Assembly (NCBI GenBank): GCA_003516025.1
Contig: CP023991.1
Location: forward strand, 420,001 to 452,000
Reading direction: 5' to 3'
From: Candidatus Saccharimonadota bacterium
GTDB lineage: Bacteria > Patescibacteriota > Saccharimonadia > Saccharimonadales > UBA4665
Length of the DNA stretch: 32,000 nt
In this document: in pieces, positions 12,262 to 28,582 of the stretch
Layout of the letters: each line of letters begins with the position of its first letter
How positions within the stretch are numbered: position 1 is the stretch's first letter
Position numbers and translations under genes: made by a program
Notes under the pieces: model-generated
What the model was told of the DNA's origin: nothing
The model's database searches: none
The model's input: the letters and a program-made list of their open reading frames with translations, nothing else

Positions 12262-12288
12262 GGCGTATCGTGGACGTACTTCGCAGTT
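12262..12288 (-). repeat. copy 3 (diverged) of the roughly 30-nt intergenic repeat family
   Basis: ATCGTGGACGTACTTCGCAGTT matches the repeat core at 19 of 22 positions. It starts 1 nt after the CofE-like stop codon. Confidence 0.6.
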
Positions 12289-12289
12289 T

Positions 12290-13021
12290 TTATAACGTCG
12301 CATCCGTAAGTGACGCCTTCTCATCGAGTTCAAATTCATGCCCGCGAATAATGGCGGCGGGAATATTATTTCCACGCTGTCCCATCACCAGTCCTGCCGC
12401 GGCGGCCAACATGTCGCAAATCGTTTCTTCGTTACTCTGTTGATCTCGGAGCGGCTGCATGCCACTCAGGCCTATACATAATTGCGTAGCACCACCAATG
12501 TCTTCACGGCCATCACTATCGGTGATTAGTATTGCTACGTCTATATTTGCCGAGTTTTTGATATTTATACGAATCTTTTTTGCGCTGGCGTTAGGATCAC
12601 GAGGCAATAAAAGCACGGTGTTGTCATCAACTGTATCAATGCCGGCACTGGTAAGCTTGCGGCCTGTTTTAGTCTTCACGCCTATCCAATTGCCGTGAAT
12701 ATCAATATTTTTTAAATCATAATCGCACTCTTGCAGTATTAACTCTAATATGGTGGGTTTTTTTCGAGGAATTTTTGCATGGAGTTCGTAGGCCTGCTTT
12801 GAGGGGACGACAGTGTTAAGTTCAACGAACCTGTTTTCCGAAATAGTTACAATTTTCGACGCGACGCAAATTATATCTCCCTGACGCAGTTCCAATCCGG
12901 TTTTATGGAGGCACGTAAGAAGAGCATCAGCTAGGTTATCTGCTGGCTGGATTGCCGGCATGTGGTGAATCCCCATGATGGTGATAGGCTTTTGCATATC
13001 GTTATGATACCAAACGCACAT
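12290..13021 (-). CDS. CofE-like (F420-0:gamma-glutamyl ligase family) protein
   Basis: 243 aa with an N-terminal PAIQPADNLADALL segment and an ILITDSDGR motif typical of the family. The true start may be ATG 12997. Confidence 0.7.
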   Translation of the reverse strand: MCVWYHNDMQKPITIMGIHHMPAIQPADNLADALLTCLHKTGLELRQGDIICVASKIVTISENRFVELNTVVPSKQAYELHAKIPRKKPTILELILQECDYDLKNIDIHGNWIGVKTKTGRKLTSAGIDTVDDNTVLLLPRDPNASAKKIRINIKNSANIDVAILITDSDGREDIGGATQLCIGLSGMQPLRDQQSNEETICDMLAAAAGLVMGQRGNNIPAAIIRGHEFELDEKASLTDATL

Positions 13022-13135
13022 AAAACTTTTTGGCGGAACTGCGCACGACGAGCGTGTGAGATAATAAGTTTACGGACAAACTCACCGTCATTTAATACGA
13101 CACGTGAGGGCCTAAAGTAACATGAAAGGTTATGT

Positions 13136-13969: not shown

Positions 13970-14030
13970 ACAAAAATTATAACAATAAAACGAGCCACTG
14001 ATGTGACCCTGGGGGTGATTAGTTTTTTCT

Positions 14031-14060
14031 GGCTGGTTATAGTTGACGTGCTTCTCGACA
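14031..14060 (-). repeat. copy 4 (diverged) of the roughly 30-nt intergenic repeat family
   Basis: GGCTGGTTATAGTTGACGTGCTTCTCGACA matches the identical copies at 22 of 30 positions without gaps. It begins 18 nt after the PNPOx-like stop. Confidence 0.5.
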
Positions 14061-14589: not shown

Positions 14590-14604
14590 ATATTACTTAT
14601 GCTT

Positions 14605-14634
14605 GGCTGTCCATCGTTGACGTACTTCGCAACT
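14605..14634 (-). repeat. copy 1 of the 30-nt repeat (GGCTGTCCATCGTTGACGTACTTCGCAACT on the plus strand)
   Basis: Identical at 30 of 30 positions to 15240-15269. It lies in the 3' UTR position of lepB, upstream of the terminator. Confidence 0.8.
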
Positions 14635-14666
14635 TTGATGATTTAAAGAAGTGGTCCGGTTAAGCT

Positions 14667-15179
14667 CTAAGGCTCAACCTTGCCGACAATACTTTCTGCC
14701 GTAATAGGTCCAAATACTCGAGAATCCAATGAAACGCTTCTGTTGTCTCCGAGGACGAAATATTGGTTCGCAGGAATAGTAATATCAATTTTTCCGCTAG
14801 TGTCGATTTGTTGTTTTAGGTAAAGTGCATCAGGATTAAAGTCTCGCGAAAACTGACTATTGTATATAGTAACTTTCCCGTTAGATATGGTAACTCTTTC
14901 ATTGGGTAGCCCTACAACGCGTTTTATGAGTTGTTTGGTTTGGTTTTGTCCTTTTTCTGAAAAGACAACTATATCTCCTCGAGCAGGATTGGCCCCACCT
15001 TTATAGGGTTCTGCTTTTACTGTTTGTCCAGAATTAAGTGTCGGACTCATTGCGGGTCCGTCTACTGCATATAGGCTTCTGTGATAATGCACCAGAGCTA
15101 CCAATGCAATGGCGACCGCTACTAATAGGATGGCTATAATTATGAGAATAACTGTTATCTTTTTTACATTTCTTTTCAT
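14667..15179 (-). CDS. lepB: signal peptidase I
   Basis: 170 aa with an N-terminal TM anchor, the Ser box GPAMSPTL, RGDIVVF, the Lys box KRVVGLPNE and VLGDNRSVSLDSR. TGcTATAAT lies 6 nt from the ATG. Confidence 0.9.
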   Translation of the reverse strand: MKRNVKKITVILIIIAILLVAVAIALVALVHYHRSLYAVDGPAMSPTLNSGQTVKAEPYKGGANPARGDIVVFSEKGQNQTKQLIKRVVGLPNERVTISNGKVTIYNSQFSRDFNPDALYLKQQIDTSGKIDITIPANQYFVLGDNRSVSLDSRVFGPITAESIVGKVEP

Positions 15180-15196
15180 AACGGGATTATAGCATA

Positions 15197-15222
15197 TAAA
15201 AAGACCTCAAAATCTGAGGCCT
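15197..15222 (-). terminator. intrinsic terminator-like hairpin upstream of the lepB promoter
   Basis: The minus strand reads AGGCCTCA-gattt-TGAGGTCT followed by TTTT. Confidence 0.6.
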
Positions 15223-15239
15223 ATAAGCATAAGCTTTAT

Positions 15240-15269
15240 GGCTGTCCATCGTTGACGTACTTCGCAACT
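15240..15269 (-). repeat. copy 2 of the 30-nt repeat
   Basis: Identical to 14605-14634. It abuts the left edge of the AT-rich island. Confidence 0.8.
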
Positions 15270-15384
15270 ACGAGCAAATACAAAATTTGGCGAAATGATA
15301 ACATAATGTACTAAGATGTTAATGTCGGACAATTAGCAATTAAGTAAGTTATGTAGGTTATGAGACATCTTATCTGGATAATAA

Positions 15385-15406
15385 TGTCACTAGTGACAGG
15401 TATGAT
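15385..15406 (+). promoter_or_regulatory. perfect 14-bp palindrome TGTCACTAGTGACA followed 2 nt later by TATGAT; candidate operator overlapping a promoter
   Basis: Palindrome at 15385-15398 and -10-like TATGAT at 15401-15406, about 60 nt upstream of the ATG at 15465. Confidence 0.45.
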
Positions 15407-15464
15407 AGTAATTTTAATCGGAGGCACCCACCCATCATTGCCTCATTTGAATAGAGGATTCGAT

Positions 15465-16229
15465 ATGTCTGATGAAATTACGGCAGGAATAATCGGCGCC
15501 GGAGCTGGATTAGTCGGTGCTTTAATTGGGGCATATGCCGGTTATAGGTTTAATGAGAAGCTTGAAGCAACGCGTACTAAGGAACGCCGTCAAGTACAAA
15601 CAAAAAACACTATTTTCTCGCCAATTTATAAACAGCTCACAGGACTGAAAGCATTTTTAGATAATCGGCAAAATCCCTTAGCCCCTAATATTTCAGTTCA
15701 TTTCGCAAACGACAGATACCATGGCGGACTTAGCTATACCTTCGACATATGGGAGAGTATGAAGCGGGACATACGTAAATTATATATTCCAGTAAGTAAG
15801 CGTGAAGAACTAGATAAATTAACAAAAGTTATAGTGGATCATATGAATCTTCAGCAAGTTGTCCAAGCGTCCATTATTCAAATTGCTGTATCGTTTGCAG
15901 CGGAACATAGAGATCGTTTAAAAACGCCTTCTAGTTGGAATCCGCGGTTTATGGGAAACGCGTTGGATGTTTACTCGTCCGGCATCGCTTACCCTCGCAT
16001 TAAAGACGATATTAAAGAACACTTAAATTCTGGGTTCAACTTTAGCCCGGAAGAACAAGATCAGTTTGCTACCGAGCTACTGAAGAGAGTGGATGAACAT
16101 GAAAATCAAAAGCGTCTTATTAATAGCTTCAATCATGTCATGTCAACAATAGTACTAGTAACAGAATCATTTGAAACACTAGTCAGCGAGATAATTACTA
16201 AATACGAAGGAGGTGTTGATGTTAAATGA
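15465..16229 (+). CDS. hypothetical membrane-anchored protein (glycine-zipper-like N-terminal TM helix)
   Basis: 254 aa from ATG 15465, with AGAGGA SD 6 nt upstream. The track start at 15360 has no SD. TM segment GIIGAGAGLVGALIGAYAGY. The rest is soluble with no motif I recognise. Confidence 0.6.
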   Translation: MSDEITAGIIGAGAGLVGALIGAYAGYRFNEKLEATRTKERRQVQTKNTIFSPIYKQLTGLKAFLDNRQNPLAPNISVHFANDRYHGGLSYTFDIWESMKRDIRKLYIPVSKREELDKLTKVIVDHMNLQQVVQASIIQIAVSFAAEHRDRLKTPSSWNPRFMGNALDVYSSGIAYPRIKDDIKEHLNSGFNFSPEEQDQFATELLKRVDEHENQKRLINSFNHVMSTIVLVTESFETLVSEIITKYEGGVDVK

Positions 16230-16440
16230 TATAGGCCTGAGTAAAGCCGAGATTCGAAGAGAAATACAAAAACATTTAGATGAAAATGCTGACTTAGTAA
16301 TTGGAATAGATGACCCTGAAATGGTGCAGCTTATCGAAGTATTATGCGACGGATTTTCTGAAGCAATTTCCGCTAACAATAAAAAAATTGCGGATGATTT
16401 AAAACGTAACGACCGAGATATGGCTATGCGTCTTCGATAA
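16219..16440 (+). CDS. hypothetical small acidic protein, translationally coupled to the upstream gene
   Basis: 73 aa from ATG 16219. GAAGGAGG SD lies 5 nt upstream, inside the 3' end of the previous ORF, and the two ORFs overlap by 11 nt. Confidence 0.55.
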   Translation: MLNDIGLSKAEIRREIQKHLDENADLVIGIDDPEMVQLIEVLCDGFSEAISANNKKIADDLKRNDRDMAMRLR

Positions 16441-16447
16441 GTAGGCG

Positions 16448-17323
16448 TTACTTTGCTTTACCAATTTTGTTCATTAGTAGCTCATTCTTTTTACGCGATA
16501 TCCAGTAAACGAAATCAAAAATCAAAGGGGCTGTGATACGGTGACTATATATTGCATCTTGCAGTGCGCGTATGTCGGCCATATCAACTTGTTGTGTTTC
16601 GCTTGCGGCAAGAAGGGATTTTGATCTATTCAAATTAGCTTCTGCATTTTTTATTGCTTGGAAATTCTTATAACATTCAACAATCATGGTTTGAAATGCG
16701 GGAATCATCGGAACTATGATAACCAAAATGAATTCTTTTAGTTTTAAATCTCGCATATTTCCGACGTAAATTAAAACAAAGAATATTACAATTACTAAAG
16801 CTGTTGTTGTGATTGTGTATTTCGTTCTAAGACTGCCATCCCACCACGAATTTATTCTTTGAGCCGTAATGATTGCTTTGCTTTGTTCCCATCGAGGGCT
16901 AATCGTATACCAGTTTTTTAATCGAGGATCTTTATTTTTCTTCAGGAAAGTTTTTTTATTGAGTAATTTGTCTGCCCACTCTTCGATCACTTCTTTAATG
17001 TCAGGTTTATTAACGATGATTACATTCAAGGGTATCTCTAGAACGTGATGATCGAATAACTCCTGAATAGAGGCAGCAGTTTTTATATAGTTTTTTATAA
17101 TCAAATACAGTGCGGCATTAATGGCAATTACAGCGATACCCAAGATAGCTATGTGTGATGCAAACTGTGGTTTGAATATCGTAGCAAAACTAAAGACAGG
17201 GACTACAATAATATTAAGCAGAAGGGTTAATGCCCAGTATTTTTTTGCATGTGAGTAAATCGCTCTTTGGGCGGCAAGAAGTCGGATTGCTTTCTTCTCA
17301 TTCTGTTTTTTGATGCTGTTCAT
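16448..17323 (-). CDS. four-TM effector, S-4TM-like (SMODS-associated) CBASS effector candidate
   Basis: 291 aa with two TM hairpins (YWALTLLLNIIVVPVFSFATIF and IAILGIAVIAINAALYLII, then ALVIVIFFVLIYVG and FILVIIVPMIPAFQTMIV) separated by a soluble insert. It lies 1 nt downstream of the nucleotidyltransferase gene. Confidence 0.7.
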   Translation of the reverse strand: MNSIKKQNEKKAIRLLAAQRAIYSHAKKYWALTLLLNIIVVPVFSFATIFKPQFASHIAILGIAVIAINAALYLIIKNYIKTAASIQELFDHHVLEIPLNVIIVNKPDIKEVIEEWADKLLNKKTFLKKNKDPRLKNWYTISPRWEQSKAIITAQRINSWWDGSLRTKYTITTTALVIVIFFVLIYVGNMRDLKLKEFILVIIVPMIPAFQTMIVECYKNFQAIKNAEANLNRSKSLLAASETQQVDMADIRALQDAIYSHRITAPLIFDFVYWISRKKNELLMNKIGKAK

Positions 17324-17324
17324 A

Positions 17325-18233
17325 TCAATAGTTGTAATTAGGAAATTTATTATTAAACAGTAAATTTAACCAGTAGAACGCATCCTTAAAGTTACCACCT
17401 ATTGTAGCATTCATCGCTTTTTCACTTCTCACCATTGCCGTATGTATCTTGCTAAGTGCCGCTGTTTTCTTATATTCAGAATTGCATGCTGCGATATAGC
17501 CAACTATTCCTGTGGGATCTTGTAACTGCGCAAGATTTATAGAGTATAGATCTTTGAAATAATAATGTAGATGTACGACATAGCTTGCGACAGTGCCTTT
17601 TTTGAAATACGTCTCCGCATATTTAGCGGCTCTCATTTCTAAATAGAATGACGATATATCTACGACATTATAGTATTTCCATGCTTTGATGAATCTTATG
17701 AATGTTTTTACCTCGTAATTGTATGTGGTGTTAACCTCTGTTACGTAAGCATTATGAGCTTTTGGGGCTGTCTTAATCCATCCTCCGTTACCATCGGCGA
17801 TTCCATAGACGGGTATGCCGCTCTTCGTAAATTCTATTAAGTAACCGGGAACTACCTCGTTAGTCTCGACGCCGTATAAGCCAAATGGCACAACAACAGC
17901 AGGCGTACTAACGTGGACATTTGATTTAGGAAAGGTGTAATTCAGCTGATCTCTGACTTTAGTAAGCATTGTGGTTGAATTTGAAGTAAGCTGTTTTTCG
18001 GGTATCAATGCCATGTAATCAATATCACTGTAGTAGATGATGTCTGTTGAGTTGCCAGACGAGCCGCTCTGAAAAAAATAGTTAATTGTATAAATTTTTT
18101 CAAGGCTTGCAAGAACACTAGCTCTATGACCCTTGGCAGCATCCCTGGCTGTACTATTGGGTTTCAACGAGGTATGAAATTGGTCAAAAGCTACTTGTAG
18201 AGTACGTGGCATGTCCTTAACCCTTTTAACCAT
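17325..18233 (-). CDS. SMODS/CD-NTase-like nucleotidyltransferase (CBASS cyclase candidate)
   Basis: 302 aa with the pol-beta NTase signature G57-S58, 11 residues, then D70-I-D72 (QSGSSGNSTDIIYYSDIDYM). A candidate third acidic residue sits in the NEVVPG strand (E126). The alternative start is ATG 18212, because the ATG at 18233 overlaps a TGcTACAAT box. Confidence 0.8.
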   Translation of the reverse strand: MVKRVKDMPRTLQVAFDQFHTSLKPNSTARDAAKGHRASVLASLEKIYTINYFFQSGSSGNSTDIIYYSDIDYMALIPEKQLTSNSTTMLTKVRDQLNYTFPKSNVHVSTPAVVVPFGLYGVETNEVVPGYLIEFTKSGIPVYGIADGNGGWIKTAPKAHNAYVTEVNTTYNYEVKTFIRFIKAWKYYNVVDISSFYLEMRAAKYAETYFKKGTVASYVVHLHYYFKDLYSINLAQLQDPTGIVGYIAACNSEYKKTAALSKIHTAMVRSEKAMNATIGGNFKDAFYWLNLLFNNKFPNYNY

Positions 18234-18614
18234 TGTAGCACTAATGCTTAATAAAATAGCAATACTGACAAACTAAGTATTTGTCTTATGTTAATTTCTG
18301 CATTATAGTGTCTGGTAGCCTTCGAGATAATTCCATGACAATCCTGCAAGAGAAAGCTAAAGCGGCACAATTCCGCAAAAACCTCGCAGATCGCTGCGTT
18401 GTAATGAACAAGCCAGTCTGACGCGTATCCCGAAGATACAAACATAAGTAGATATGCCGTACGCAAGTCGAGGCCCTACTTAGTCAGATAGAACCTTTGA
18501 TTGCGAAACAGGTACTGCCACTCGCGACAAAGCTCAATCACCGTTTTTAGGTGTGCTCTATAAAGAGCGAGTTTTGTTGTGTCCTAGTACCGCAATATAA
18601 GAATCGATATTTAT

Positions 18615-18640
18615 AACCACCCAGAAATGGGTGGTTTTTT
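18615..18640 (+). terminator. strong intrinsic terminator with no annotated upstream plus-strand gene
   Basis: AACCACCCA-gaaa-TGGGTGGTT followed by TTTT. Confidence 0.6.
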
Positions 18641-18667
18641 AATACATAAAAATAGGAGGGATTTTAT

Positions 18668-18808
18668 ATGACGAAAAATCCAAAGCAGTTAGAACTTAAG
18701 TTCAACGTGAAGACCCGCAGCGATGGTGCTAGGAGCCGTGCGCCGCACCGGCGGGGCGGGCGTCCTGTATTACTTGATATACAGGACATAAATAGGGTCA
18801 TTTCATGA
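18668..18808 (+). CDS. small basic ORF (46 aa) coupled to rep by an ATGA overlap
   Basis: AGGAGGG SD lies 7 nt upstream. The product is MTKNPKQLELKFNVKTRSDGARSRAPHRRGGRPVLLDIQDINRVIS. The ORF is below the track size cut-off, and coding status is uncertain because the region also carries the origin-like hairpin. Confidence 0.4.
   Translation: MTKNPKQLELKFNVKTRSDGARSRAPHRRGGRPVLLDIQDINRVIS
18762..18787 (+). promoter_or_regulatory. candidate rolling-circle double-strand origin: 9-bp stem presenting TACTTGAT in the loop (CTTG/ATA nick-site consensus)
   Basis: GTCCTGTAT-tacttgat-ATACAGGAC. ACTTGATAT matches the nick region I recall for phiX174 and the CTTGATA core of pC194-class origins. It lies 18 nt upstream of the rep ATG. 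Confidence 0.6.
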
Positions 18809-19674
18809 ATAATGATCTCAACAAAATCGAGTCAATATTTGGAAAAATTAAAAAAATAGATGCCAGCTACGAGGTACGTGCCAGTGCGAAGTACTACCCT
18901 CATCATACAAAAGTATTTATTCCGAATGTTCCATACAGAAAAATGATTCCGTTCATGGAGCAACGCATTGATGATCTTGACGACATTGTAGAGGACTGGG
19001 ATACGAGGGTTATTGCTGATTCAAAAACATCAACTGAGGACAATTTGGAGCGGTCAATCCGCAGAACGAAAACACTTATTTCCGATTACGTTCTTTGTAA
19101 CGATTTTGATATATTCGCTACCTTTACCTTTTCCCCTAAGAAAACAGCCGATCGTACTGACACCCGTACCGTTAAACGCCAAATGAGTAACTGGATAAAA
19201 AACCAAAAAGCACGTAACAGCAATTTTGCATATTTGATTGTTCCAGAATTCCATAAAGACGGTAAGTCTTTGCATTTTCATGCACTTATCCATGACTATC
19301 CAGGCGAGCTCATCGATTCAGGCAATCGAATAAATGGCAGAAAATCGTACAACTTTAAAAGTTATACCCTCGGTATCAATAGCGCGGTAAAGATAGACGA
19401 CCGCCATAAAGTATCGAACTATGTTAAGAAATACATAACAAAAGACATGCCCCAGTTTCCCGGCAAGCACCGCTTTTGGTCTTCCACTGGCTTAGAGCGG
19501 CCACGGGTAGAGGATAACCCAAGTGAGTGGTACCTACAAGCAAAGCCACAGCGGGTATATGAAAATGAGTACGGGTGTACGCTCTACTTCATTACCGACT
19601 CGTCGCAAGCCACTGAGTCTCATAGTCTCACTGAAGGCAGCACTCCGCCATCGCTCTCGGAGAAAGACGCCTAG
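18805..19674 (+). CDS. HUH rolling-circle replication initiator (two-tyrosine, phiX174 gpA / Microviridae-like motif 3)
   Basis: 289 aa with motif 1 FATFTFSP, motif 2 SLHFHALIH (H157-F-H159) and motif 3 NYVKKYITK (Y206 and Y210). Confidence 0.85.
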   Translation: MNNDLNKIESIFGKIKKIDASYEVRASAKYYPHHTKVFIPNVPYRKMIPFMEQRIDDLDDIVEDWDTRVIADSKTSTEDNLERSIRRTKTLISDYVLCNDFDIFATFTFSPKKTADRTDTRTVKRQMSNWIKNQKARNSNFAYLIVPEFHKDGKSLHFHALIHDYPGELIDSGNRINGRKSYNFKSYTLGINSAVKIDDRHKVSNYVKKYITKDMPQFPGKHRFWSSTGLERPRVEDNPSEWYLQAKPQRVYENEYGCTLYFITDSSQATESHSLTEGSTPPSLSEKDA

Positions 19675-19675
19675 T

Positions 19676-19771
19676 ATGGCTTTGTCTTCCACTGACTTAG
19701 ATGCGTGGAAGGCTTACTTCAAGCTGCTTGCAGAACTCGACAAGAAACAGAATAAGAAGGACGCTAAATGA
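19676..19771 (+). CDS. possible 31-aa ORF between rep and the recombinase gene
   Basis: The ATG lies 1 nt after the rep stop. The product is MALSSTDLDAWKAYFKLLAELDKKQNKKDAK. There is no SD and the call is very tentative. Confidence 0.25.
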   Translation: MALSSTDLDAWKAYFKLLAELDKKQNKKDAK

Positions 19772-19811
19772 GCTATAATGTATATAAATTAAATCGGCGG
19801 TAACGGTGGGA

Positions 19812-21335
19812 ATGCATGCTTTTCTCATCGCTCGCGTATCGACTGCTGATCAGGTGGAAGCCTTGCCGGCTCAAGTCTATAAATTAACCGACTATGCTAA
19901 AAGTCAGGGTTACGATTTTGAGTTGTTCGAGTTTCATGAAAGCGCTTACAAAGGCACTCGAGAAAAGTTCCGCGAAGTCATAGCTACCATACAGGCGTCG
20001 ACCGAAAAAGTAGTCGTTGTCTTTGATAAAGTCGACCGTTTCACTCGTGATTCAAGCGCAGAAGAAACAAATATTTTCAAAAAGCTGTATCAGTCAGGAA
20101 AGATCGAGCTACATTTTCCATCTGAAAACCTGATACTACACGAAGGTTCACCGTCTACCGACAGAATGCGCCTCGGACTGAATACGATATTTGCAGAGTA
20201 TTACTCCGACGCTATAAGTGATAATGTAAAGCGCCGCAACTATCAGCTATGGAGAGACGGCTATTGGACCGGACCCGCACCGTTCGGATATGTAAATATA
20301 TCAAAACCAGATGGCAGTAAATGGATAGATAAAGTACCCGTTGAAGCATTAGCAGTGAAATTAGCCTATGAGTTATATGCCACTGGAAGCTACTCGCTCC
20401 GGCTTGTTCGCATGCAAGTTATAAAGCAATACGGTATTTCTCGTTCAATTGGCCAATGGGATAAGGTGCTCAAGAATCCGTTCTATGCAGGACAAATGAG
20501 AATCAAAGGCAAGCTGTACAAACACAACTATGAACAGCTCATTAACTCGTCATTATTCGATCAAGTTAAAGCCGTGCGGGAAGGTCATGCGATACAACCA
20601 AAAAGGTGGGCTGGCTTGCCGTATCCATATCGTGGACTTATTACGTGTGCTGACTGCGGTTGTAAGGTGACTTTCGAGATAAAGAAAGGCAAGTATGTAT
20701 ATGGTCACTGTACGCAGTTCAGAGGTAAGCACGATGCAGCGTATGTTAATGAAAAGTTAATGACAAAACAGCTTAGATCAGTATTCTGGCAGATACAAAT
20801 ACCGGAAGATGCTTATGAAGAAGTATCAAAAGCATTACTGGCTGATGATGAACAATCAAACCGACAAAACAGTGAAAAGCTAGAGCATATTAACGCCGAA
20901 ATCAAACGCTATGAATCGAAAATTGAACGTAATTACGATATGTATTTAGACGGCGGCATAAGCAAAGAAACCTATCAAAAGAAGCATGACGAATTGACAT
21001 TAATTAAGGCCTCACTCGAAAGCACTAGAAAAAATATCGAACTTATGGCGAACAATAATTATGACGGTGCATTACATCTGTTAGAGCTATCTCGTAAAGC
21101 GCCTGATTTATTTGAGACTGCTGAAATTGAAGAACGCCGTACGCTCATCAATATGGTACTTTCGAACTTGGAGCTAGACGACAAAGAACTTTGGTGGAAA
21201 CTAAAAGAACCATACGATTGTATGGTTCTTTGTAATGAAAACGCAAATTGGCTGGGGATGAGGGATTCGAACCCCCGAATGCTGGTACCAGAAACCAGTG
21301 CCTTACCACTTGGCGAATCCCCAATATATATGTAA
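19812..21335 (+). CDS. large serine recombinase (integrase)
   Basis: N-terminal resolvase domain with the catalytic-Ser context AFLIARVSTADQ, a recombinase domain, a zinc ribbon (CADCGCKVTFEIKKGKYVYGHC) and a C-terminal coiled coil. The last 28 codons read antisense through tRNA-Gln and beyond. The track start is GTG 19806. Confidence 0.9.
   Translation: MHAFLIARVSTADQVEALPAQVYKLTDYAKSQGYDFELFEFHESAYKGTREKFREVIATIQASTEKVVVVFDKVDRFTRDSSAEETNIFKKLYQSGKIELHFPSENLILHEGSPSTDRMRLGLNTIFAEYYSDAISDNVKRRNYQLWRDGYWTGPAPFGYVNISKPDGSKWIDKVPVEALAVKLAYELYATGSYSLRLVRMQVIKQYGISRSIGQWDKVLKNPFYAGQMRIKGKLYKHNYEQLINSSLFDQVKAVREGHAIQPKRWAGLPYPYRGLITCADCGCKVTFEIKKGKYVYGHCTQFRGKHDAAYVNEKLMTKQLRSVFWQIQIPEDAYEEVSKALLADDEQSNRQNSEKLEHINAEIKRYESKIERNYDMYLDGGISKETYQKKHDELTLIKASLESTRKNIELMANNNYDGALHLLELSRKAPDLFETAEIEERRTLINMVLSNLELDDKELWWKLKEPYDCMVLCNENANWLGMRDSNPRMLVPETSALPLGESPIYM
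21249..21323 (-). tRNA. tRNA-Gln (anticodon CUG), CCA encoded
   Basis: The reverse complement folds as a cloverleaf. Acceptor stem UGGGGAU/AUCCCCA, anticodon arm CUGGU-UUCUGGU-ACCAG, T arm GGGGG-UUCGAAU-CCCUC, discriminator G plus CCA. Length 75 nt. Confidence 0.95.
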
Positions 21336-21417
21336 AACGTGCGTGTAACCCCGGTGATTATAAAGCAATACTGGAAAAAAATCTAGGCCCATGTTACCAT
21401 TTAAAGCATTAACAACT

Positions 21418-21588
21418 AAGAATATACAGAGTGCGGCAAGAGAACTAGCTCTACGACCCGCCAGCAACCTGCCAGTGTGCCTATCGGTATGCAAGCAAGG
21501 TGCTCCATCTAGCCCAGGCTTCAGCGCTGGAAAGATATTTATTTGTCACGATATCCTTTCAGCGCTTTTGCCAAGAAAGGATATTTTT
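21418..21588 (+). promoter_or_regulatory. SAM-I-clan riboswitch candidate with terminator / SD-sequestering expression platform upstream of metK
   Basis: P1 GAATAT (21420-21425) pairs with ATATTT (21535-21540). J1/2 AGAG at 21428-21431, GCAACC at 21464-21469, GGTGC at 21499-21503, and a GAAAGATAT 3' strand. A P2 loop CTAG could pair with CTAG at 21509-21512. Downstream hairpin GATATCCTTTC (21550-21560) / GAAAGGATAT (21575-21584) is followed by TTTT and ATG, and its right arm contains the SD. Confidence 0.65.
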
Positions 21589-22731
21589 ATGTCAACTCAA
21601 ACACAAGGCGCCTACTTGTTCACCAGCGAATCGGTCTGCGCAGGGCATCCGGATAAAATCGCTGATGCTGTCAGTGATGCCGTATTAGATGCCGCGCTTG
21701 CACAGGATTCCAATTCCCGCACGGGAATAGAGACGGTTGTTGGCGCAAACCAAATCAGTCTGTTCGGTGAAATTAAAACTACTGCCACGCTCGATTTTGA
21801 AGCCATTGCTCGCGGCGCCGTTGAAAGGCTCGGCTATACCAACCCGGCTTGGGGATTTTCTGACAAATCGGCGTTTAGTAACTATATACACCAGCAGTCA
21901 CCGGAAATTGCGGCTGGAGTTGACCAGGCAGGTGCGATTGGTGCCGGCGACCAGGGAATGATGTTCGGCTATGCCTGCACCGAAACTGCTGAGTATATGC
22001 CAGCGCCGATAGCTCTGGCGCATTCCTTAACCAGGGCAATCGACGATGCTCGAATAGACCAAAAATTGCAATGGTTGCGGCCTGACGGCAAGGCTCAGGT
22101 GACCTTACGCTACGAGAATTTTAAGCCGGTGAGCGTCGAGAAGGTGGTTGTAGCGGTCGCTCACGACGAAGCGGCGACGGCCCGTCAGGTACGGGAAGAC
22201 ATTATCGCGCATGTTATTGAGCCGACCTTGCGTGCTGCCGGCTATGCAGTGCCCTCATCGGAAAATATTGTCGTTAATGGTACTGGCGTGTGGCATATTC
22301 CCGGCCCGGACTCAGATGCCGGCCTCACCGGTCGTAAGATTGTCGTCGATACCTACGGCGGTTATGCTCGGGTTGGTGGTGGCGCCTTTAGTGGCAAGGA
22401 TCCTAGTAAGGTTGACCGCAGTGGGGCGTATGCCGCCCGCTTTATTGCGAAAAATGTTGTGACGGCCGGTTTGGCCACGCGCTGCGAAGTCGGCTTGGCG
22501 TACGTAATCGGCCAGTCTGAACCGTTGATGCAGACAATTGAAACATTCGGTACTGCTACGGTTAGCGAGGCGGAGTTGGCCGCGTTTAAAGACAACCTGA
22601 TACATACTTCAGTGTCCGGAATTATAAACAAGCTTAATCTATCGCGGCCAATATATAGTCAGACCTGCGCTTACGGGCATTTTGGCAAGCCAACATTGCC
22701 ATGGGAAGAGATAGTTAACAAGCGTCGTTAA
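21589..22731 (+). CDS. metK: S-adenosylmethionine synthetase
   Basis: 380 aa from ATG 21589 with FTSESVCAGHPDKIADAVSDAVLDA, GAGDQGMMFGYA and GGGAFSGKDPSKVDRS. The track's upstream extension to 21391 covers the riboswitch and is rejected. Confidence 0.95.
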   Translation: MSTQTQGAYLFTSESVCAGHPDKIADAVSDAVLDAALAQDSNSRTGIETVVGANQISLFGEIKTTATLDFEAIARGAVERLGYTNPAWGFSDKSAFSNYIHQQSPEIAAGVDQAGAIGAGDQGMMFGYACTETAEYMPAPIALAHSLTRAIDDARIDQKLQWLRPDGKAQVTLRYENFKPVSVEKVVVAVAHDEAATARQVREDIIAHVIEPTLRAAGYAVPSSENIVVNGTGVWHIPGPDSDAGLTGRKIVVDTYGGYARVGGGAFSGKDPSKVDRSGAYAARFIAKNVVTAGLATRCEVGLAYVIGQSEPLMQTIETFGTATVSEAELAAFKDNLIHTSVSGIINKLNLSRPIYSQTCAYGHFGKPTLPWEEIVNKRR

Positions 22732-22867
22732 AACTGTTTTCGTCCTTTTGGACTCATCAGCATGAAATTCCCATAATGGGCATTCATGGAACAGTGAGTG
22801 GTGACAGGTAGTGGAATCCTCCCGGTATGAGGGGGACTCAACAGTACCTGCCACCTGGCCGGAGTAC

Positions 22868-22889
22868 GATGTGACGACATTGTCACATC
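22868..22889 (-). terminator. hairpin after the last gene of the GC-rich operon
   Basis: GATGTGAC-gacatt-GTCACATC, an 8-bp perfect stem 15 nt after the stop at 22904. There is no U-tract, so function is uncertain. Confidence 0.45.
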
Positions 22890-22903
22890 AACTCACGGCT
22901 TCC

Positions 22904-24442
22904 CTAGACAGTGTCCAGGGTGTTCTTTCGTGTGGTCTCCAACCGCACCTCGCTCTCTTTGAGGATGTCGTGGCCGTGCTCGGTCTTGTGCCAGGTGTAG
23001 CGGGTCTTGCGACGAGCGAGCTCGAAGAGGACCCGGTACGCCGACCAGCTGGTGAAGATCCACCAGAAGGGTGCGAGCAGCATGTACTTGACGCTGCCGT
23101 AGCCCTCACGGTCGAGACATGCCGTAACCAGCTGCAGGAAGAGCAGCAGGTTGCCGACCAGGAGCAGTGCCACGCCAGTGTAGAACACCGGAGTGGGGAA
23201 CAACTGCTCGATGGCCTGCGAACCATCGGTGTAGCCCGCGACGCGAGTCACGAAGTACGCGATGGTCAGACCCCAGTAGATCGGGTTGAGCATCAGGCTG
23301 AAGGGCGTACCCAGCATCAGCAGGTTGAAGCAGAACCACTTGACGGGTCCCATCTGCCGAGCCGTACGTACCGGCTGCCTGGTGTAGACCAGACCGGTCT
23401 GCAGGTAGCCCTTCAGCCAGCGGCGTCGCTGCCCATCGGCCACGCGGACACGGGAAGTTGCCTCCTCGTAGGTCACCGAGTCGATGATCTTGATGTCGTA
23501 GCCGTACATGGCGAGGGCGCCAGCCAGCTCCGCATCCTCGGTGACGTTGTACGAGTCCCATCCGTAGGCGGCATCGGTGCCACCGGGGAGTGCCGGGAAC
23601 TCGCTCTGCGGGAAGGCGATCTTGCGGAGCACCTCCGTGCGGAAGTGGTTCGAAGTTCCTCCCAGCGGCGGTACCAGGTTGAGCTTGGCCAGCCCCGCCA
23701 GGTTGTACACGAAGTGCACCACGTACTCCGCCCAGTAGAACCGGGTGACCCACGAGGTGTCTTCGTTCCAGAACTGCAGCCGGGCCTGCACGCAGGCGAC
23801 GGTGCCTTTCTGGTCCTTGCGGAACTCGGCCACTGCCTTGAGCAGCTGGTCCGGGTCCGGACGGTCCTCGGCGTCGTAGATGACACTGAAGACGCCGGTG
23901 GCACGGGCCAGGCCGATGTTGAGCGCGCGCGGCTTGCCCTTGGGCTGGTTCATGCGCGCCTGGCCCTGGGGGATGCCCGGTGCGACGATGATCTCGAAGT
24001 TGTCCGGCAGGTCCATGATCTGGGCCTCCAGGAGGGTCTCGGTGTCATCTTCCTCGAGCAGCAACAGCACCTGCAGCCTGTGCTTGGGGTACTGGAGCTG
24101 GCTGAGGTTGTACACCAGCGCCGGCAGGATCTGGGCCTCCCTGTAGAGGGGAACCAGGGCGGTGTAGGTCGGCAGATCCGGGTCGTTGATGCTCAGCGGC
24201 GGCGTTGCCGGTGAAGATCCGCGGACCTGGAGTGATGCCACGAACAGCACGGCCTTCAGCAGCATGATGCAGCCGTAGAAGGTCAAGCTGATGTCGACGA
24301 GCACTTGCAGCGTGCCGGTGGTGAAGAGCACCAGGCCGACCAGGACTGCGAACAGGCCCAGTGCGAGGGTGATCTTCTGGCCGGTGCTCAGGAACACCCG
24401 GGCTGAACGCCGCGGCAGTGCCTTGTTGCGATGACCGCTCAC
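22904..24442 (-). CDS. membrane-embedded processive family-2 glycosyltransferase (cellulose/chitin/hyaluronan-synthase-like)
   Basis: Motifs VIYDAEDRPDPDQL, VTEDAELA and QRRRWLKG (the D, D, D, QxxRW signature), flanked by TM helices. The start is reassigned to GTG 24442, which forms a GTGA overlap with the upstream stop and has GAGGAG SD upstream. Confidence 0.85.
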   Translation of the reverse strand: MSGHRNKALPRRSARVFLSTGQKITLALGLFAVLVGLVLFTTGTLQVLVDISLTFYGCIMLLKAVLFVASLQVRGSSPATPPLSINDPDLPTYTALVPLYREAQILPALVYNLSQLQYPKHRLQVLLLLEEDDTETLLEAQIMDLPDNFEIIVAPGIPQGQARMNQPKGKPRALNIGLARATGVFSVIYDAEDRPDPDQLLKAVAEFRKDQKGTVACVQARLQFWNEDTSWVTRFYWAEYVVHFVYNLAGLAKLNLVPPLGGTSNHFRTEVLRKIAFPQSEFPALPGGTDAAYGWDSYNVTEDAELAGALAMYGYDIKIIDSVTYEEATSRVRVADGQRRRWLKGYLQTGLVYTRQPVRTARQMGPVKWFCFNLLMLGTPFSLMLNPIYWGLTIAYFVTRVAGYTDGSQAIEQLFPTPVFYTGVALLLVGNLLLFLQLVTACLDREGYGSVKYMLLAPFWWIFTSWSAYRVLFELARRKTRYTWHKTEHGHDILKESEVRLETTRKNTLDTV

Positions 24443-26013
24443 GGCTTCTCCTCGAAGACGTAGTAGGAATTGTTCTGGAAGGCCAGCGTGTAGCCGTCCA
24501 GTTCCGGCGAACCGTCGAGGGTGGTGTAGACCTCGTCCGGCTGGTCGGTGTGGCGCATGACGATCCACTGGATGTCACTGCCTGCGGGGTGGGCCAGGGC
24601 CGGCTCCCAGAGCTGGTAGCTGCCCTCGTAGAGGTTGGCCCCTGTCGGGATGCCGGCCTCGAAGAGGACGAGCTCGTTGCCGAACGACTCCATGAGCACC
24701 AGGCCGCCCTCGTAGTGTTCCTTGAGGTAGGCGCTGGCCTCGGAAGAGTCCGTGCTGTAGCTGGTGTCGAGTGCCACCACCGGCTCCTTGAGTGTCACGA
24801 CGTTGCTGGTGTCCGTTGCCGTCCACAAGCCGAACATCACGACGAAGCCGATGATGACCACGCTGGCCATCTGCGTGTAGATCCTGCTGGTGAGCAGGCT
24901 CGACAGGTAGCCGATCAGCACTGCTGCTGGCAGAACCATCAGCAGACCGAAGCGCACGTTGTACAAGTCACCGGAGATCTGCTCGACGTGCAGCGGCCGC
25001 TGGCCACTGTAGAGGGCGAACACGAAGAACGGGAACAGCGTCAGGAGCGACAGAACCGGCAGCGAGTGCGCGGACAGCCGTTCACGAACGATGTACCCGA
25101 TCAGACCGATGACGGCCAGCACTGCGATCGGCAACCAGAGGTTGCTGACCGTCGCGATGGTGTAGGTGCGCAGCGCGACTAGCGGGTGTCCCAGCGAGGG
25201 TTCACCGCTGCCGACCCAGAGGGACGGCTTGGCGTACTCGCCGACCTGGAAGCTGAGCGGGTTCCCGAAGATGATCAGGTTCCACAGCATCCAGCCGGAG
25301 ATGGCGATTCCGCCGATGATCGCGAAGGCGATGACGGTGCCCTCGATCTTGCGACCTTCGAACTTGGAGCGCCATCCCATGATCCCGATCAGAACCGTCA
25401 GTACTGCGAACAGCACCCACGCTTCGTAGCGGGTCAGGCATCCTGCCAGTCCTGCCAGCCCGGCACCGATGAGGTAGCCGAACCGGTCAGTCTTGATCCA
25501 GCGCTGTGCACCGTAGACCATCCCCGCCATGCAGGCGAAGAGCAGGAGCTCGGTCATCGGCGTGGACTGCATGTACAGCACGTTGGGGTTCAGCATGAAC
25601 ACCAACGCACCGACGATGCCGGCCAGCTTGTGACCCGTGAGGTCGACGACGATCTTGTACAGCAGCGCGCTGGTGATGACGTAGGCCACCATCGACACGA
25701 TGCTGCCAGCGAAGCCGTTGAAGTACAGCGGGTCGATCCAGACGAACGGCAGGGACAGCAGGTGGGGCAGCGGAAGCCACACTCCACCGAGCTGCGCGAA
25801 CGACATGCCGCCGGACGGGTTGTTCAGTGTCCGGCTGGCGATCTCGAGGTGCGAGATGCCGTCCTTGTACGCCAAGATCACGCCCTTCTGGAAGAAGTAC
25901 GTGAACGAGGCGACCGACAGCAGGCTGGCTACGAGCGCCACCCAGCGGACGGTCTTGTCACGCTGCGGTGGACTGATGACCATGGGGTCACGGTCGAGTG
26001 TTGCGGTAGCCAT
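24439..26013 (-). CDS. polytopic membrane protein, putative GT-C-fold (ArnT/PMT-like) glycosyltransferase
   Basis: 524 aa with about 11-13 TM helices, a first loop carrying YKDGISHLEIA, and a C-terminal soluble domain. Its position after a polyprenyl-phosphate GT2 fits a three-component Gtr-type system. The family assignment is an inference. Confidence 0.7.
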   Translation of the reverse strand: MATATLDRDPMVISPPQRDKTVRWVALVASLLSVASFTYFFQKGVILAYKDGISHLEIASRTLNNPSGGMSFAQLGGVWLPLPHLLSLPFVWIDPLYFNGFAGSIVSMVAYVITSALLYKIVVDLTGHKLAGIVGALVFMLNPNVLYMQSTPMTELLLFACMAGMVYGAQRWIKTDRFGYLIGAGLAGLAGCLTRYEAWVLFAVLTVLIGIMGWRSKFEGRKIEGTVIAFAIIGGIAISGWMLWNLIIFGNPLSFQVGEYAKPSLWVGSGEPSLGHPLVALRTYTIATVSNLWLPIAVLAVIGLIGYIVRERLSAHSLPVLSLLTLFPFFVFALYSGQRPLHVEQISGDLYNVRFGLLMVLPAAVLIGYLSSLLTSRIYTQMASVVIIGFVVMFGLWTATDTSNVVTLKEPVVALDTSYSTDSSEASAYLKEHYEGGLVLMESFGNELVLFEAGIPTGANLYEGSYQLWEPALAHPAGSDIQWIVMRHTDQPDEVYTTLDGSPELDGYTLAFQNNSYYVFEEKP

Positions 26014-26780
26014 CAGGCTGCCATCTCCTTGGAGTCGTGGTGCTTGAGCGCACGCTTGAACTTGCGGTTGATGCGGTTCAGCTCCCTGATGGAACTGAAG
26101 GCCACATGGATCTTGGCGCCCGACTGCTTGCCGTAACGGCGCGGGCCGTGCGTAACGCCGACGTTCACCACCCGAAGCTGGTGTTCCTTGACGTACCGCA
26201 TGATCTCCGGAGAGATCGCCGCGCCCTGCATGGCGGTCAGCTGGTCGGCGAAGAGCTTGAGGCCCTCGCGCTTGAACAGCTTGAAGCCGCAGTCGACGTT
26301 GAACGCCTCGTGCTTGACGATCGCCCGCGAGAGCAACTGCCAGGCATGGCCGATGAGCTTCCTCGTCCAGTTGTCGGCACGTTTGATCCTGAAGCCGATG
26401 GCGACATCCGCGTTGGCGGAGAGCGCTTCGTTCAGGAGCTTGCTGACTTCCTGGGGAGCGAACTGCCCGTCGGCATCGCAGAACCCGATCCAGTCGTAAC
26501 CCATGGCCAAGCCGGTCTTGAGGCCGGTCTGGAGGGCTCCGCCGTATCCGAGGTTCCGGATGTGGGTCTCGGTCCGCACCTTGTCACCGTAGAGGCTTTC
26601 GAGGCGCTTGCAGACCGTGGACGTGTCGTCCTTGCTGCCGTCGTTGACGATGATGACGACGAACTCGTGCCCCTGCTTGTCCAGGTGGTCGACGGCTTCG
26701 CCTACCACGAAGGGCAAGTTCTCCGCCTCGTTCCAGGCCGGCAGGAAGAACGCGATGCTGGGCTTTGCTGAAGTGTCCAT
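26013..26780 (-). CDS. family-2 glycosyltransferase, polyprenyl-phosphate sugar synthase type (GtrB/Ppm1/DPM1-like)
   Basis: 255 aa from ATG 26780 with IAFFLPAWNEAENL, VNDGSKDDT, NLGYGGAL and CDADGQF. The TAATG overlap with gtrA and the TGATG overlap with the next gene indicate coupling. The track's extension to 26963 is rejected. Confidence 0.85.
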   Translation of the reverse strand: MDTSAKPSIAFFLPAWNEAENLPFVVGEAVDHLDKQGHEFVVIIVNDGSKDDTSTVCKRLESLYGDKVRTETHIRNLGYGGALQTGLKTGLAMGYDWIGFCDADGQFAPQEVSKLLNEALSANADVAIGFRIKRADNWTRKLIGHAWQLLSRAIVKHEAFNVDCGFKLFKREGLKLFADQLTAMQGAAISPEIMRYVKEHQLRVVNVGVTHGPRRYGKQSGAKIHVAFSSIRELNRINRKFKRALKHHDSKEMAA

Positions 26781-27178
26781 TAGACACCCCTTTCTGGTTG
26801 GAAGACCACGTGGTGGTTGATCAGGAAGGTGCAGACAGTGCTGAGCAGCGTCGCGAAAATTGCCGCGACTAGACTTGGGAGAGCACAGACGTTGTGCGCC
26901 AAGCCAAACAGTAGGCTGTTGATGCCGAGCGCCAGTGTGGCGTTGAAGGCAAACTTGAGCCATGTCAGCAACAGATACCCACCAGTACGCCGCGCAGAGT
27001 CACCCCAGGTAAAGGTGTAACTGAGCACGAAGTTCAACTGAGCGGATATCATGAAACCAATGCCGTTCGCATAGAGCGCGGGCATGTAGTGTTCCAGCAG
27101 GTGCAGTAGTAATAACTGGACGAGGAAACACAGCAACCCAACTCCAACGAACTTTATCTGTCGGCTCATGTATTCCAA
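26780..27178 (-). CDS. GtrA-family small membrane protein (polyprenyl-phosphate sugar flippase-like)
   Basis: About 130 aa with four TM helices and FVGVGLLCFLVQLLLLHLL at the N-terminus. 27178 is a TTG, so ATG 27169 is the likelier start. Confidence 0.75.
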   Translation of the reverse strand: MEYMSRQIKFVGVGLLCFLVQLLLLHLLEHYMPALYANGIGFMISAQLNFVLSYTFTWGDSARRTGGYLLLTWLKFAFNATLALGINSLLFGLAHNVCALPSLVAAIFATLLSTVCTFLINHHVVFQPERGV

Positions 27179-27342
27179 TCTGAGGTAGTTTGGAGACCAA
27201 ATTGTGAAAGAACTTGAGTGTAAGCATGGTATGCCACACTACCGTTATGTATACTATAAAAGTAGATATATTACAACATAAATCATATATTTATGTAAGA
27301 TATTTAACAATATCCTTGAAAATTATGCTAAATATCACTGAT

Positions 27343-28527
27343 TTAGGTCACAAAAAAGTCTGTCCCATGTAACTCATCGGGCAAAAACCCATTCGTATGC
27401 TTAAAATCAGCCTCCCATTTATAACCTTTATTGTAGCCTAAATCTTTCATGAGTTTGGTTGGCGCGTTACGGAGATGCAGAGGAACGGGCAAGTCAGGGT
27501 GCTCCTTCGCGGCGGCCTGAGCAGCGTACATGGCATTTGAAACTGCCCGTGACTTAGCGGTTTTTGCCAGTACCGAAGCGCAGTGGAATAAGTTGTACTG
27601 GCATTCCGGCATACCGATGCGCTCAACGGCCTGGAAAGTCGCTACAGCTAAGTTCAAGGCCGCCGGTGCCGCCAGCCCAATGTCTTCAGAAGCGAATATT
27701 ACCATACGGCGGGCGATAAACTTAGGGTCTTCGCCGGCCTGTAGCATCCGGGCCATGTAGTACAGCGCGGCAGTGGCGTCGGAGCCCCGCATGCTTTTAA
27801 TGAACGCGCTGATGATGTTGTAGTGGTTCTCGCCATTTTTGTCATAGCCGGGTACTCGTTTTTGAGCGGCGGTACGGACGACTTCGGGCGTTATTTTTTC
27901 GGTAGTCAGCTGTAGTGCCAGCTCTAAGTTACCCAGGGCCACGCGGGCATCACCGCCGGCGGCTTCCGCCAGCAGGTCAATGCTTTCCTTTGGCAGACGT
28001 TTAGCGGATAGTCCTTCTGCTTTAGCGGTAGACTGCAAAATATGTATGATGTCTTCTTTGCTGTGCGGCTCAAGTACCAATACTCTCGATCGGCTGAGCA
28101 GCGGCGTTATGACTTCGAAACTGGGGTTTTCAGTAGTGGCGCCGACCAGCACGATCGTTCCGTCTTCCACGTACGGCAGCAAAGAATCCTGCTGCGCCTT
28201 GTTAAAACGGTGGATTTCATCGACGAACAAAATAGTCTTCATCCCGAGACGGCGATTTTGTTCGGCCCGCTCTACGGCCTTTAATATGTCCGCCTTACCG
28301 GCCGTAACGGCGCTGAGTTCTATGAATTCAGCTTCTGTCTCCCGGGCAATAATACGGGCCAAGGTAGTCTTGCCACTGCCGGGCGGCCCCCATAAGATAA
28401 GGCTGGTCGGCTGTTTCTGTTCGACGATCTGCCGGATAATCTTGCCGGCACCTACTAGATGCGACTGTCCCACAACATCAGCCAGTGTCTCAGGCCTCAT
28501 TCTCTCCGCGAGTGGTCTCGTGTCCAT
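27343..28527 (-). CDS. rarA: replication-associated recombination protein A (AAA+ ATPase)
   Basis: MDTRPLAERMRP N-terminus, Walker A GPPGSGKTT, Walker B FVDEIHRFNK, and a C-terminal MgsA-type domain. The start is set at ATG 28527 because TATACT lies 7 nt upstream. Confidence 0.9.
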   Translation of the reverse strand: MDTRPLAERMRPETLADVVGQSHLVGAGKIIRQIVEQKQPTSLILWGPPGSGKTTLARIIARETEAEFIELSAVTAGKADILKAVERAEQNRRLGMKTILFVDEIHRFNKAQQDSLLPYVEDGTIVLVGATTENPSFEVITPLLSRSRVLVLEPHSKEDIIHILQSTAKAEGLSAKRLPKESIDLLAEAAGGDARVALGNLELALQLTTEKITPEVVRTAAQKRVPGYDKNGENHYNIISAFIKSMRGSDATAALYYMARMLQAGEDPKFIARRMVIFASEDIGLAAPAALNLAVATFQAVERIGMPECQYNLFHCASVLAKTAKSRAVSNAMYAAQAAAKEHPDLPVPLHLRNAPTKLMKDLGYNKGYKWEADFKHTNGFLPDELHGTDFFVT

Positions 28528-28582
28528 AATTACCAGTATAATCCCTTTGTGAAAAGTTAGCGCCACGGGTACAATATGAGGA

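Follow-up and report, generated by a model that had tools for sequence, protein, structure and literature searches.

How did an operon of high G+C content come to be located between metK and rarA, two housekeeping genes of a Saccharibacteria genome? The question is raised by a segment of 4611 bp (positions 22732 to 27342, from the metK stop to the rarA stop) in a 32 kb stretch of contig CP023991.1, which was analyzed over its whole length and is called the window in the following. The segment carries four genes, in the order gtrA, GT2a, GT-C and GT2b, the last three coding for predicted glycosyltransferases. We consider it likely that this is an intact four-gene operon, acquired horizontally at the rarA/metK site from a genome of clearly higher G+C content, and that it belongs to a cassette family exchanged between phyla.

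Base composition and codon usage

The distribution of G+C along the window was analyzed. A first reading of this DNA, made from the sequence alone (the original prediction), had proposed an island of about 4.4 kb at 22800-27180, and an island is indeed present there: its G+C content is 62.1%, compared to 47.2% in the remaining window, and the backbone around the whole segment (62% G+C) is at about 47-53%. In a 500-bp profile G+C rises from about 0.50 to 0.60-0.67 over 23001-27000, then drops to 0.41 at 27001-27500. The value of 67-70% initially given holds for the two 60-nt lines on which it was counted (0.70 and 0.67), but the mean over all lines of the island is 0.62 and just 21% of them reach 0.67 or more. 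In the same way, the sharp AT-rich edge described for both sides is found on the rarA side (28-34% G+C at 27201-27400), whereas the metK side is at 41-44%.

As predicted, the codons of the island end overwhelmingly in G or C. The three large genes have a G+C content at third codon positions (GC3) of 0.875-0.894, compared to 0.520 +/- 0.053 for 17 backbone genes (z = 6.7-7.0), and 85-97% of the two-fold degenerate codons end in C or G, with the exception of those for E (GAG, 0.74). GC1 and GC2 are ordinary, the G+C excess being confined to third codon positions. The plus strand opposite the island genes contains the long shadow open reading frames (ORFs) already noticed in the first reading (467, 254, 316 and 244 aa). 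The deviant base composition and codon usage by which genomic islands are recognized are thus both found in the segment, and its foreign origin, from a source of clearly higher G+C, is well supported. The gtrA gene had been described as compositionally intermediate, which is the case (G+C 0.53, GC3 0.69, z = 3.1). In almost all taxa considered, gtrA has a lower GC3 than the other genes of the operon; this low value is a trait of the family, so that it says nothing on a mosaic origin of the operon, an explanation which we rejected.

Codon usage was also scored against the flanks of 22 loci, ORF calling being crude in the high-GC flanks. The mean log-likelihood of the island codons is -0.84 to -0.90 with flanks from high-GC genomes, compared to -1.08 to -1.26 with Saccharibacteria-type flanks. 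This score separates high-GC from low-GC genomes but singles out no donor, and was rejected as a donor identifier.

Insertion at the rarA/metK junction

The best matches of RarA are 80-88% identical, and all named ones come from Saccharibacteria/Saccharimonadales. The backbone is that of a Saccharibacteria (Saccharimonadales) genome of about 1.0 Mb, as had been suspected. Both flanking genes are housekeeping genes according to their Pfam domains, again in agreement with the first reading: metK (21391-22731, plus strand, probable start at about 21586, GC3 0.51-0.53) has the N, M and C domains of S-AdoMet synthetase, and rarA/mgsA (27343-28566, minus strand) is an ORF of 407 aa with MgsA_C, AAA and RuvB_N domains, called in 385 or 394 aa forms in other assemblies.

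Presence or absence of the segment, a check suggested by the original prediction, was then decided in related genomes, where rarA and metK are convergent. The junction is empty in L169 (RarA 88% identical), with 104 bp between the two genes, in L170 (84%), where the genes overlap, and in L089 (75%), with 12 bp between them; no cassette remnant is found in these three. Two other relatives have unrelated cargo at the junction: a gene for a hypothetical small protein and a GH5 cellulase in L171 (GCA_036388415.1; RarA 83%, positions 9319-11109), an ABC transporter ATPase, its permease and a 404-aa protein in L090 (RarA 79%, positions 2400-6290). The absence of the segment from the junction of the closest relatives, which is a further trait of genomic islands, indicates an acquisition. 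Since some junctions are empty and others hold different cargo, the segment is a lineage-specific gain at a recurrent insertion hotspot, with no visible recombinase genes at the hotspot itself. Entry later than the split from the relatives with 88% RarA identity is well supported, and this split is the sole bracket on an event which had been called recent.

Could the cassette instead be ancestral at rarA/metK, lost in the relatives and kept at high GC3 by selection or biased gene conversion? The cassette is common in Saccharibacteria, and the window and L087 copies are 54-59% identical, similar to a backbone helicase (55%), which would agree with common descent. The junctions just described, overlapping or 12-104 bp wide without remnant in three relatives and occupied by unrelated cargo in two, are hardly compatible with this scenario. 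Moreover, the cassettes of other Saccharibacteria are located elsewhere, away from both metK and rarA, and we know of no mechanism that would keep one operon 7 standard deviations above the GC3 of its genome. An ancestral cassette is therefore very improbable.

Distribution of the cassette and its source

The four-gene order gtrA-GT2-GT-C-GT2 was found in Mycobacteriaceae, Glycomyces, Herbidospora, Nonomuraea, Actinomadura, Kocuria, Pseudarthrobacter, Sinomonas and several Saccharibacteria. The operon is widespread in Actinobacteria and Saccharibacteria, and more distant pairs of a GT-C protein and a synthase are present in Chloroflexota and other Patescibacteria. The best non-self proteins are 60% (GT-C) and 63% (GT2b) identical to those of the window, and at the DNA level the closest non-self locus is 67.5% identical. 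Named matches reach 63% (GT2b) and 53-54% (GT-C) in Saccharibacteria, and 52-57% in Micrococcaceae.

In the concatenated neighbour-joining tree a clade with 100% bootstrap contains a basal Saccharimonas (L012), a group of Mycobacteriaceae, and a radiation to which the window copy belongs. Inside this radiation the window copy and L083 form a pair (94% bootstrap), and L087, L086, Kocuria, Pseudarthrobacter and Sinomonas are grouped at 99%. In the cargo trees, also neighbour-joining and with weak inner nodes, the family is nested among Actinobacteria, Mycobacteriaceae and Micrococcaceae being interleaved with Saccharibacteria.

The G+C content of the cassette was compared with that of its flanks in each genome. 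Values for cassette and flank are 0.62 and 0.47-0.53 in the window, 0.62 and 0.53 in L083, 0.59 and 0.50 in L012, 0.54 and 0.49 in L087, 0.53 and 0.48 in L003, 0.51 and 0.47 in L086, and 0.51 and 0.52 in L008. On Saccharibacteria-type contigs the cassette is thus up to 9 points above its flank or about level with it (-1 in L008). The difference is of opposite sign in Mycobacteriaceae (0.61-0.63 with flanks of 0.64-0.68, that is -3 to -5 points) and in Micrococcaceae (about -8 to -13 points). In Kocuria sp. M4R5S9 (L004, about 5500-13000) the cassette is at 0.59 (53-64%) and the flank at 0.72 (genome 72-80%); in Pseudarthrobacter sp. W1I19 (L173, about 8000-13100) the values are about 0.53 (51-56%) and 0.60-0.69; in Sinomonas atrocyanea (L174, about 2000-6200), where the cassette lies beside an rve integrase, they are about 0.57 (53-62%) and about 0.65. 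By these values, higher-GC donors appear to be the source of the window and L083 copies, and lower-GC donors that of the nearest named actinobacterial copies (Kocuria, Pseudarthrobacter and Sinomonas). The Micrococcaceae copies, which are low in G+C and nested among Saccharibacteria-type sequences, suggest a transfer from the epibiont to the host phylum.

A protein of about 1180 aa with GSDH, PKD and DUF1349 domains adjoins the cassette in Saccharibacteria-like loci and in three loci of the Mycobacteriaceae clade (two named Mycobacteriaceae and one unclassified Actinomycetota metagenome-assembled genome), and is absent from the window. Its coordinates are 8417-11224 in L083, 4836-8396 in L086, 1259-4840 in L087, 1537-5016 in L048, 5165-8626 in L005, 4609-8652 in L006 and 6444-9983 in L174. 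In L083, L086, L087 and the three Mycobacteriaceae-clade loci it is 62-68% identical across phyla, which is further evidence of exchange between them; the Sinomonas neighbour (L174) has the same domain composition and is known from its domains only. This protein seems to travel with the cassette. Apart from it, comparison of flank proteins was uninformative for the taxonomic placement of L083, and was abandoned for that use.

Cultivated Saccharibacteria live attached to Actinobacteria. Judged by a GC3 of 0.88, the donor genome of the window copy would have a G+C content of about 60-66% or more, and would most likely be that of an actinobacterium, or of a lineage in which the cassette had resided until it acquired such a composition. 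The cassette family would be rooted among Actinobacteria and would have been exchanged repeatedly with Saccharibacteria, apparently in both directions, the immediate donor being absent from the databases searched. The high-GC, actinobacterial-like source of the original prediction agrees with the codon fit to high-GC genomes and with the deep rooting of the family among Actinobacteria, but no donor can be named, the best matches being at 60-63%. It is plausible that the source was an actinobacterium, and that this actinobacterium was the host; a direct and recent host-to-epibiont transfer is likewise plausible.

A donor within the phylum is a different explanation: another cassette-bearing Saccharibacterium or Patescibacterium would have passed on the operon, Actinobacteria being only the remote source of the family. 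Several results go in this direction. The best matches (60-63%) are located on low-GC contigs of small-genome type (flanks at 53% in L083, 47% in L086 and 49% in L087), L087 has a helicase 55% identical to that of the window, the named top matches include Saccharimonadales (63% for GT2b), and the pair formed by the window and L083 (94% bootstrap) falls within a radiation rich in Saccharibacteria. Horizontal gene transfer (HGT) into Patescibacteria is documented, and most of it takes place within the phylum according to a published survey (PMC12455944). However, a GC3 of 0.88 and a G+C content of 62% exceed those of all Saccharibacteria-type backbones considered here (flanks at 47-53%), and such a donor would pass on an ameliorated cassette, as in L086, L008 and L003 (51-53%). 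The L083 copy is likewise a high-GC island, so that it looks recently imported itself. We therefore regard a donor within the phylum as rather unlikely.

The cassette may also shuttle both ways between Saccharibacteria and their actinobacterial hosts, the window copy being a return from an unsampled actinobacterium of about 62-66% G+C. Because the Micrococcaceae copies are low-GC islands nested among Saccharibacteria sequences, they would in that case be epibiont-to-host transfers. We put this forward as a tentative possibility.

A number of observations weigh against acquisition from a higher-G+C genome, the answer preferred here. The original prediction had named homologues falling within the lineage of the backbone as a finding that would speak against it, and this is partly so: named best homologues are Saccharibacteria-like as often as actinobacterial, the radiation around the window copy is dominated by Saccharibacteria-type contigs, and its nearest tree neighbours are Saccharibacteria-like, the L083 contig being at about 53% G+C. 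All trees are neighbour-joining, the concatenated one with 1065 positions, and the deep branches inside the radiation are weak (bootstrap below 60). The Kocuria, Pseudarthrobacter and Sinomonas copies are low-GC islands and consequently look like recipients, not donors. Searches of 5.8 billion proteins and of the contig collections gave no sequence of a donor or near-donor, a result not expected if a recent transfer had come from a well-sampled phylum, and one that calls for caution about the word recent.

Composition and mobility add to these points. Of the two compositional checks first suggested, codon usage gives an outlier but tetranucleotides do not: the correlation of tetranucleotide z-scores between island and backbone is r = 0.34, compared to 0.29-0.52 for backbone windows of the same size. 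The signal of the island is thus essentially one of third codon positions. This correlation is not discriminating at the length of the island and was rejected as a test of foreignness. The backbone composition was drawn from the 32 kb window, and other high-GC genes were looked for in these 32 kb and about 10 kb of extra flank. The mobility hallmarks of genomic islands (integrase, tRNA, direct repeats at the borders) are missing from the segment: we found no integrase or recombinase inside it, no integrase or tRNA at its edges, and no target-site duplication, direct repeats or terminal inverted repeats there. Plasmid and phage collections queried with the GT-C protein gave no carrier, the sole plasmid-collection match being a Nonomuraea chromosome filed among plasmids and phage matches being nil. 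Finally, the metK-side junction was not recovered in an independently retrieved assembly, L002 ending 27 bp past the GT2b stop.

Integrity of the assembly

This last point raises the possibility of a chimera of assembly or binning, in which a high-GC fragment was joined to a Saccharibacteria contig. Contigs from independent assemblies, L001 of JGI and L002 and L176 of Logan, match the segment at 100% identity. The Logan assembly of SRR6241621 breaks inside GT2a (L176 ends at about 26273 and L002 at 26302 of the window) and again 27 bp after the GT2b stop, at the other end of L002 (22877), and the metK side has no independent contig; a chimera could produce such a pattern. The breaks could be ordinary fragmentation or a sign of strain variation around the island. 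L176 and L002 overlap at 26273-26302, so that the break inside GT2a leaves the sequence uninterrupted, and the rarA-gtrA junction, one of the two places where a chimera had been thought detectable, is spanned at 100% identity by both L001 and L176. Island and backbone proteins are on one NCBI contig of 1,005,782 bp, GT2b being also on a JGI contig of 1,005,352 bp. In addition, an AT-rich leader comes with the operon, which is placed exactly between two stop codons. A chimeric origin of the island is unlikely, indeed extremely so.

Organization of the operon

rarA, gtrA, GT2a, GT-C and GT2b are on the same strand and converge on metK. The four island genes, all on the minus strand, have the overlapping stop and start codons described in the first reading: TAATG between gtrA and GT2a, then TGATG, and GTGA between GT-C and GT2b. 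Each overlapped start in the operon is preceded by a Shine-Dalgarno-like GGAG or AGGGG, and the four genes are translationally coupled. Upstream of gtrA lies an AT-rich leader of 164 bp (27179-27342, minus strand, about 28-34% G+C) with two promoter-like hexamer pairs. These sigma-70-like sites are at 27351-27322 and 27310-27282 of the minus strand, the region having 4 sites compared to 1.1 expected from shuffles; the leader would drive expression of the operon.

At the other end, the 22732-22903 region between the stops of GT2b and metK would form a structured 3' trailer on the minus strand. For this sequence of 172 nt (175 nt when counted to 22906), the predicted minimum free energy is -76.7 kcal/mol (z = -6.1 relative to shuffles), with three strong hairpins and no T-run. 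It matches no Rfam family and has no homologue in related loci, and the Rfam scan of the whole window gave tRNA-Gln only. The trailer is a probable terminator region for two convergent transcription units.

Gene products and proposed function

The first gene (26780-27178, minus strand) codes for a small membrane protein of the GtrA family, of 132 aa from a TTG start, with an alternative ATG at 27169. It matches PF04138 (GtrA_DPMS_TM) at 2.7e-17, all 117 of the 117 profile positions being covered. GT2a (26013-26780, minus strand, 255 aa), which has no transmembrane domain, matches PF00535 (7.9e-23), and its sequence matches in PDB are dolichol-P-mannose synthase (5mlz, 5e-10), ArnC (1e-9) and GtrB (sll0501, 1.7e-4); the best NCBIfam model, PpgS, gives 56 bits, below its cutoff of 370. 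By these similarities GT2a resembles polyprenyl-phosphate glycosyltransferases of the DPMS/ArnC/PpgS type, and is a putative polyprenyl-phosphate sugar synthase.

The GT-C protein (24439-26013, minus strand, 524 aa) is PMT_2/GT39-like and matches PF13231 (5.5e-9). Its AlphaFold model (pLDDT 84.9, pTM 0.88) gives solely GT-C enzymes with Foldseek (DPY19, STT3/OST, PglB, Pmt4, ArnT and AftA, TM 0.5-0.58), and an Asp in the first loop, D51, is invariant in alignment A1. The model points to a transferase of GT-C fold, predicted to act on the outer face. GT2b (22904-24442, minus strand, 512 aa, GTG start) matches PF13632/PF13641 and carries the catalytic motifs D, DxD, TED and QxxRW of processive synthases: D190, E192-D193, T301-E302-D303 and Q338/R341/W342 show no or almost no variation among 35 homologues, the window protein included (alignment A2). 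In the AlphaFold model (pLDDT 91.5), which has N- and C-terminal helices, the GT-A domain would pack on a transmembrane channel. The top Foldseek matches are hyaluronan synthase, BcsA and chitin synthase (Chs1), with E values of 1e-13 to hyaluronan synthase and BcsA and TM of at most 0.57, and GT2b is modelled as a membrane-integrated processive synthase of the cellulose/hyaluronan-synthase type.

The mechanism that we consider most likely joins a lipid-linked sugar pathway to a processive synthase. On the cytoplasmic side of the membrane GT2a, aided by the GtrA-like protein, would use a nucleotide sugar to charge polyprenyl phosphate with a sugar moiety. The lipid-linked sugar would then be flipped across the membrane, and the GT-C enzyme would pass it to an acceptor on the outer face. 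The likely acceptor is a beta-linked glycan polymerised and exported by GT2b; once decorated in this way, the glycan would be a polysaccharide of the cell surface or the extracellular space. Neighbours of the cassette in other genomes are hydrolases of families GH26 (with CBM11 in Kocuria), GH113 and GH16, and in Pseudarthrobacter a GlxA-like oxidase. These neighbours fit a polymer that may be beta-mannan-like or beta-glucan-like; the window copy consists of the four core genes alone, with no hydrolase gene. Base composition, gene content, folds and motifs, empty sites, cassette distribution and tree topology are thus shown by the data, and we infer from them the sugar and acceptor of this scheme, expression from the leader, the donor and the route by which the DNA entered.

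Other elements in the window

The G+C skew is opposite in a second island (35-42% G+C) at 14600-21335, which ends at tRNA-Gln(CTG) (21249-21323). It contains a large serine integrase (19806-21335) whose ORF runs antisense through tRNA-Gln, a rolling-circle Rep (18805-19674), and a type I CBASS pair: a CD-NTase/SMODS cyclase (17325-18233, PADLOC 1.5e-100) and an S-4TM effector (16448-17323, PADLOC 3.7e-61). The island is probably a mobile element that integrated into this genome and encodes an anti-phage system; both the serine integrase and tRNA-Gln (19.8-21.3 kb) are part of this separate low-GC element, not of the glycan segment. A perfect 31-nt direct repeat, TGGCTGTCCATCGTTGACGTACTTCGCAACT, is located at 14604-14634 and 15239-15269 and flanks a signal peptidase I gene (14667-15179). 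A further, third copy with 74% identity is found 574 bp upstream (14030-14060). The repeat may serve as a regulatory or att-like site, or mark the boundary of a gene cassette.

Comparison with known systems

Islands of atypical composition, three-component glycosylation systems and synthase-dependent glycans are already well known, and as a single locus the segment is a conventional HGT island with enzymes of known types. Here the entry of a surface-glycan operon into a Saccharibacteria genome is cleanly resolved to its site, and the locus adds compositional evidence for one glycan cassette crossing both ways between two phyla. Host prediction for uncultivated Saccharibacteria could benefit, with Micrococcaceae and Mycobacteriaceae as candidates, and the glycan of the cassette is a candidate for a role in cell-cell contact. 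If the cassette does shuttle between the two partners, it would mark host-epibiont pairs, and a shared surface glycan may act in attachment or mimicry.

Evidence of gene exchange between Saccharibacteria and Actinobacteria is only beginning to emerge: a 2026 preprint describes exchange between a Saccharimonadia genus and Ca. Phosphoribacter (10.64898/2026.09.16.751625), while for TM7x and its Actinomyces host, the best-studied pair, no strong sign of gene exchange was seen (PMC7427843). Natural transformation is possible in Saccharibacteria (PMC10633639). Like the HGT islands reported between Saccharimonadia and Actinomycetota, the segment has atypical G+C and codons, is present or absent at a conserved junction, and has a partner phylum to which the known hosts of cultivated Saccharibacteria belong. 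Unlike them, it has no border integrase, tRNA or repeats, and no near-identical counterpart in the partner phylum: the same preprint set its threshold at more than 99% nucleotide identity (its Methods give more than 90%), whereas the best match is here at 67%.

Concerning the synthase, the motifs and transmembrane bundle of GT2b are those of BcsA, hyaluronan synthase, chitin synthase/NodC, PgaC and Streptomyces CslA-GlxA, and the location of the cassette beside hydrolases in other genomes echoes the synthase-plus-hydrolase pairing of synthase-dependent systems. Unlike these systems, the island has no PilZ domain, BcsB or other partner, and GT2b is 11-19% identical to solved synthases.

Three-component systems for extracytoplasmic glycosylation comprise GtrA/GtrB/GtrX of Shigella phages, ArnC/ArnT, mycobacterial PpgS/Rv3632/Rv3779, CsbB/GtcA/YfhO and GacI/GacJ/GacL. 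The island misses by far all NCBIfam cutoffs of the curated equivalogs of such Gtr-type systems, as given above for PpgS. Like them, it combines a GtrA-family protein, a GT2 similar to DPMS, ArnC, GtrB and PpgS, and a GT-C transferase in contiguous and coupled genes. With its 255 aa and no C-terminal transmembrane helices, GT2a differs from GtrB and ArnC, and, like PpgS, it probably relies on its GtrA-like partner. To the Gtr-type set the island operon adds a fourth gene, the processive synthase.

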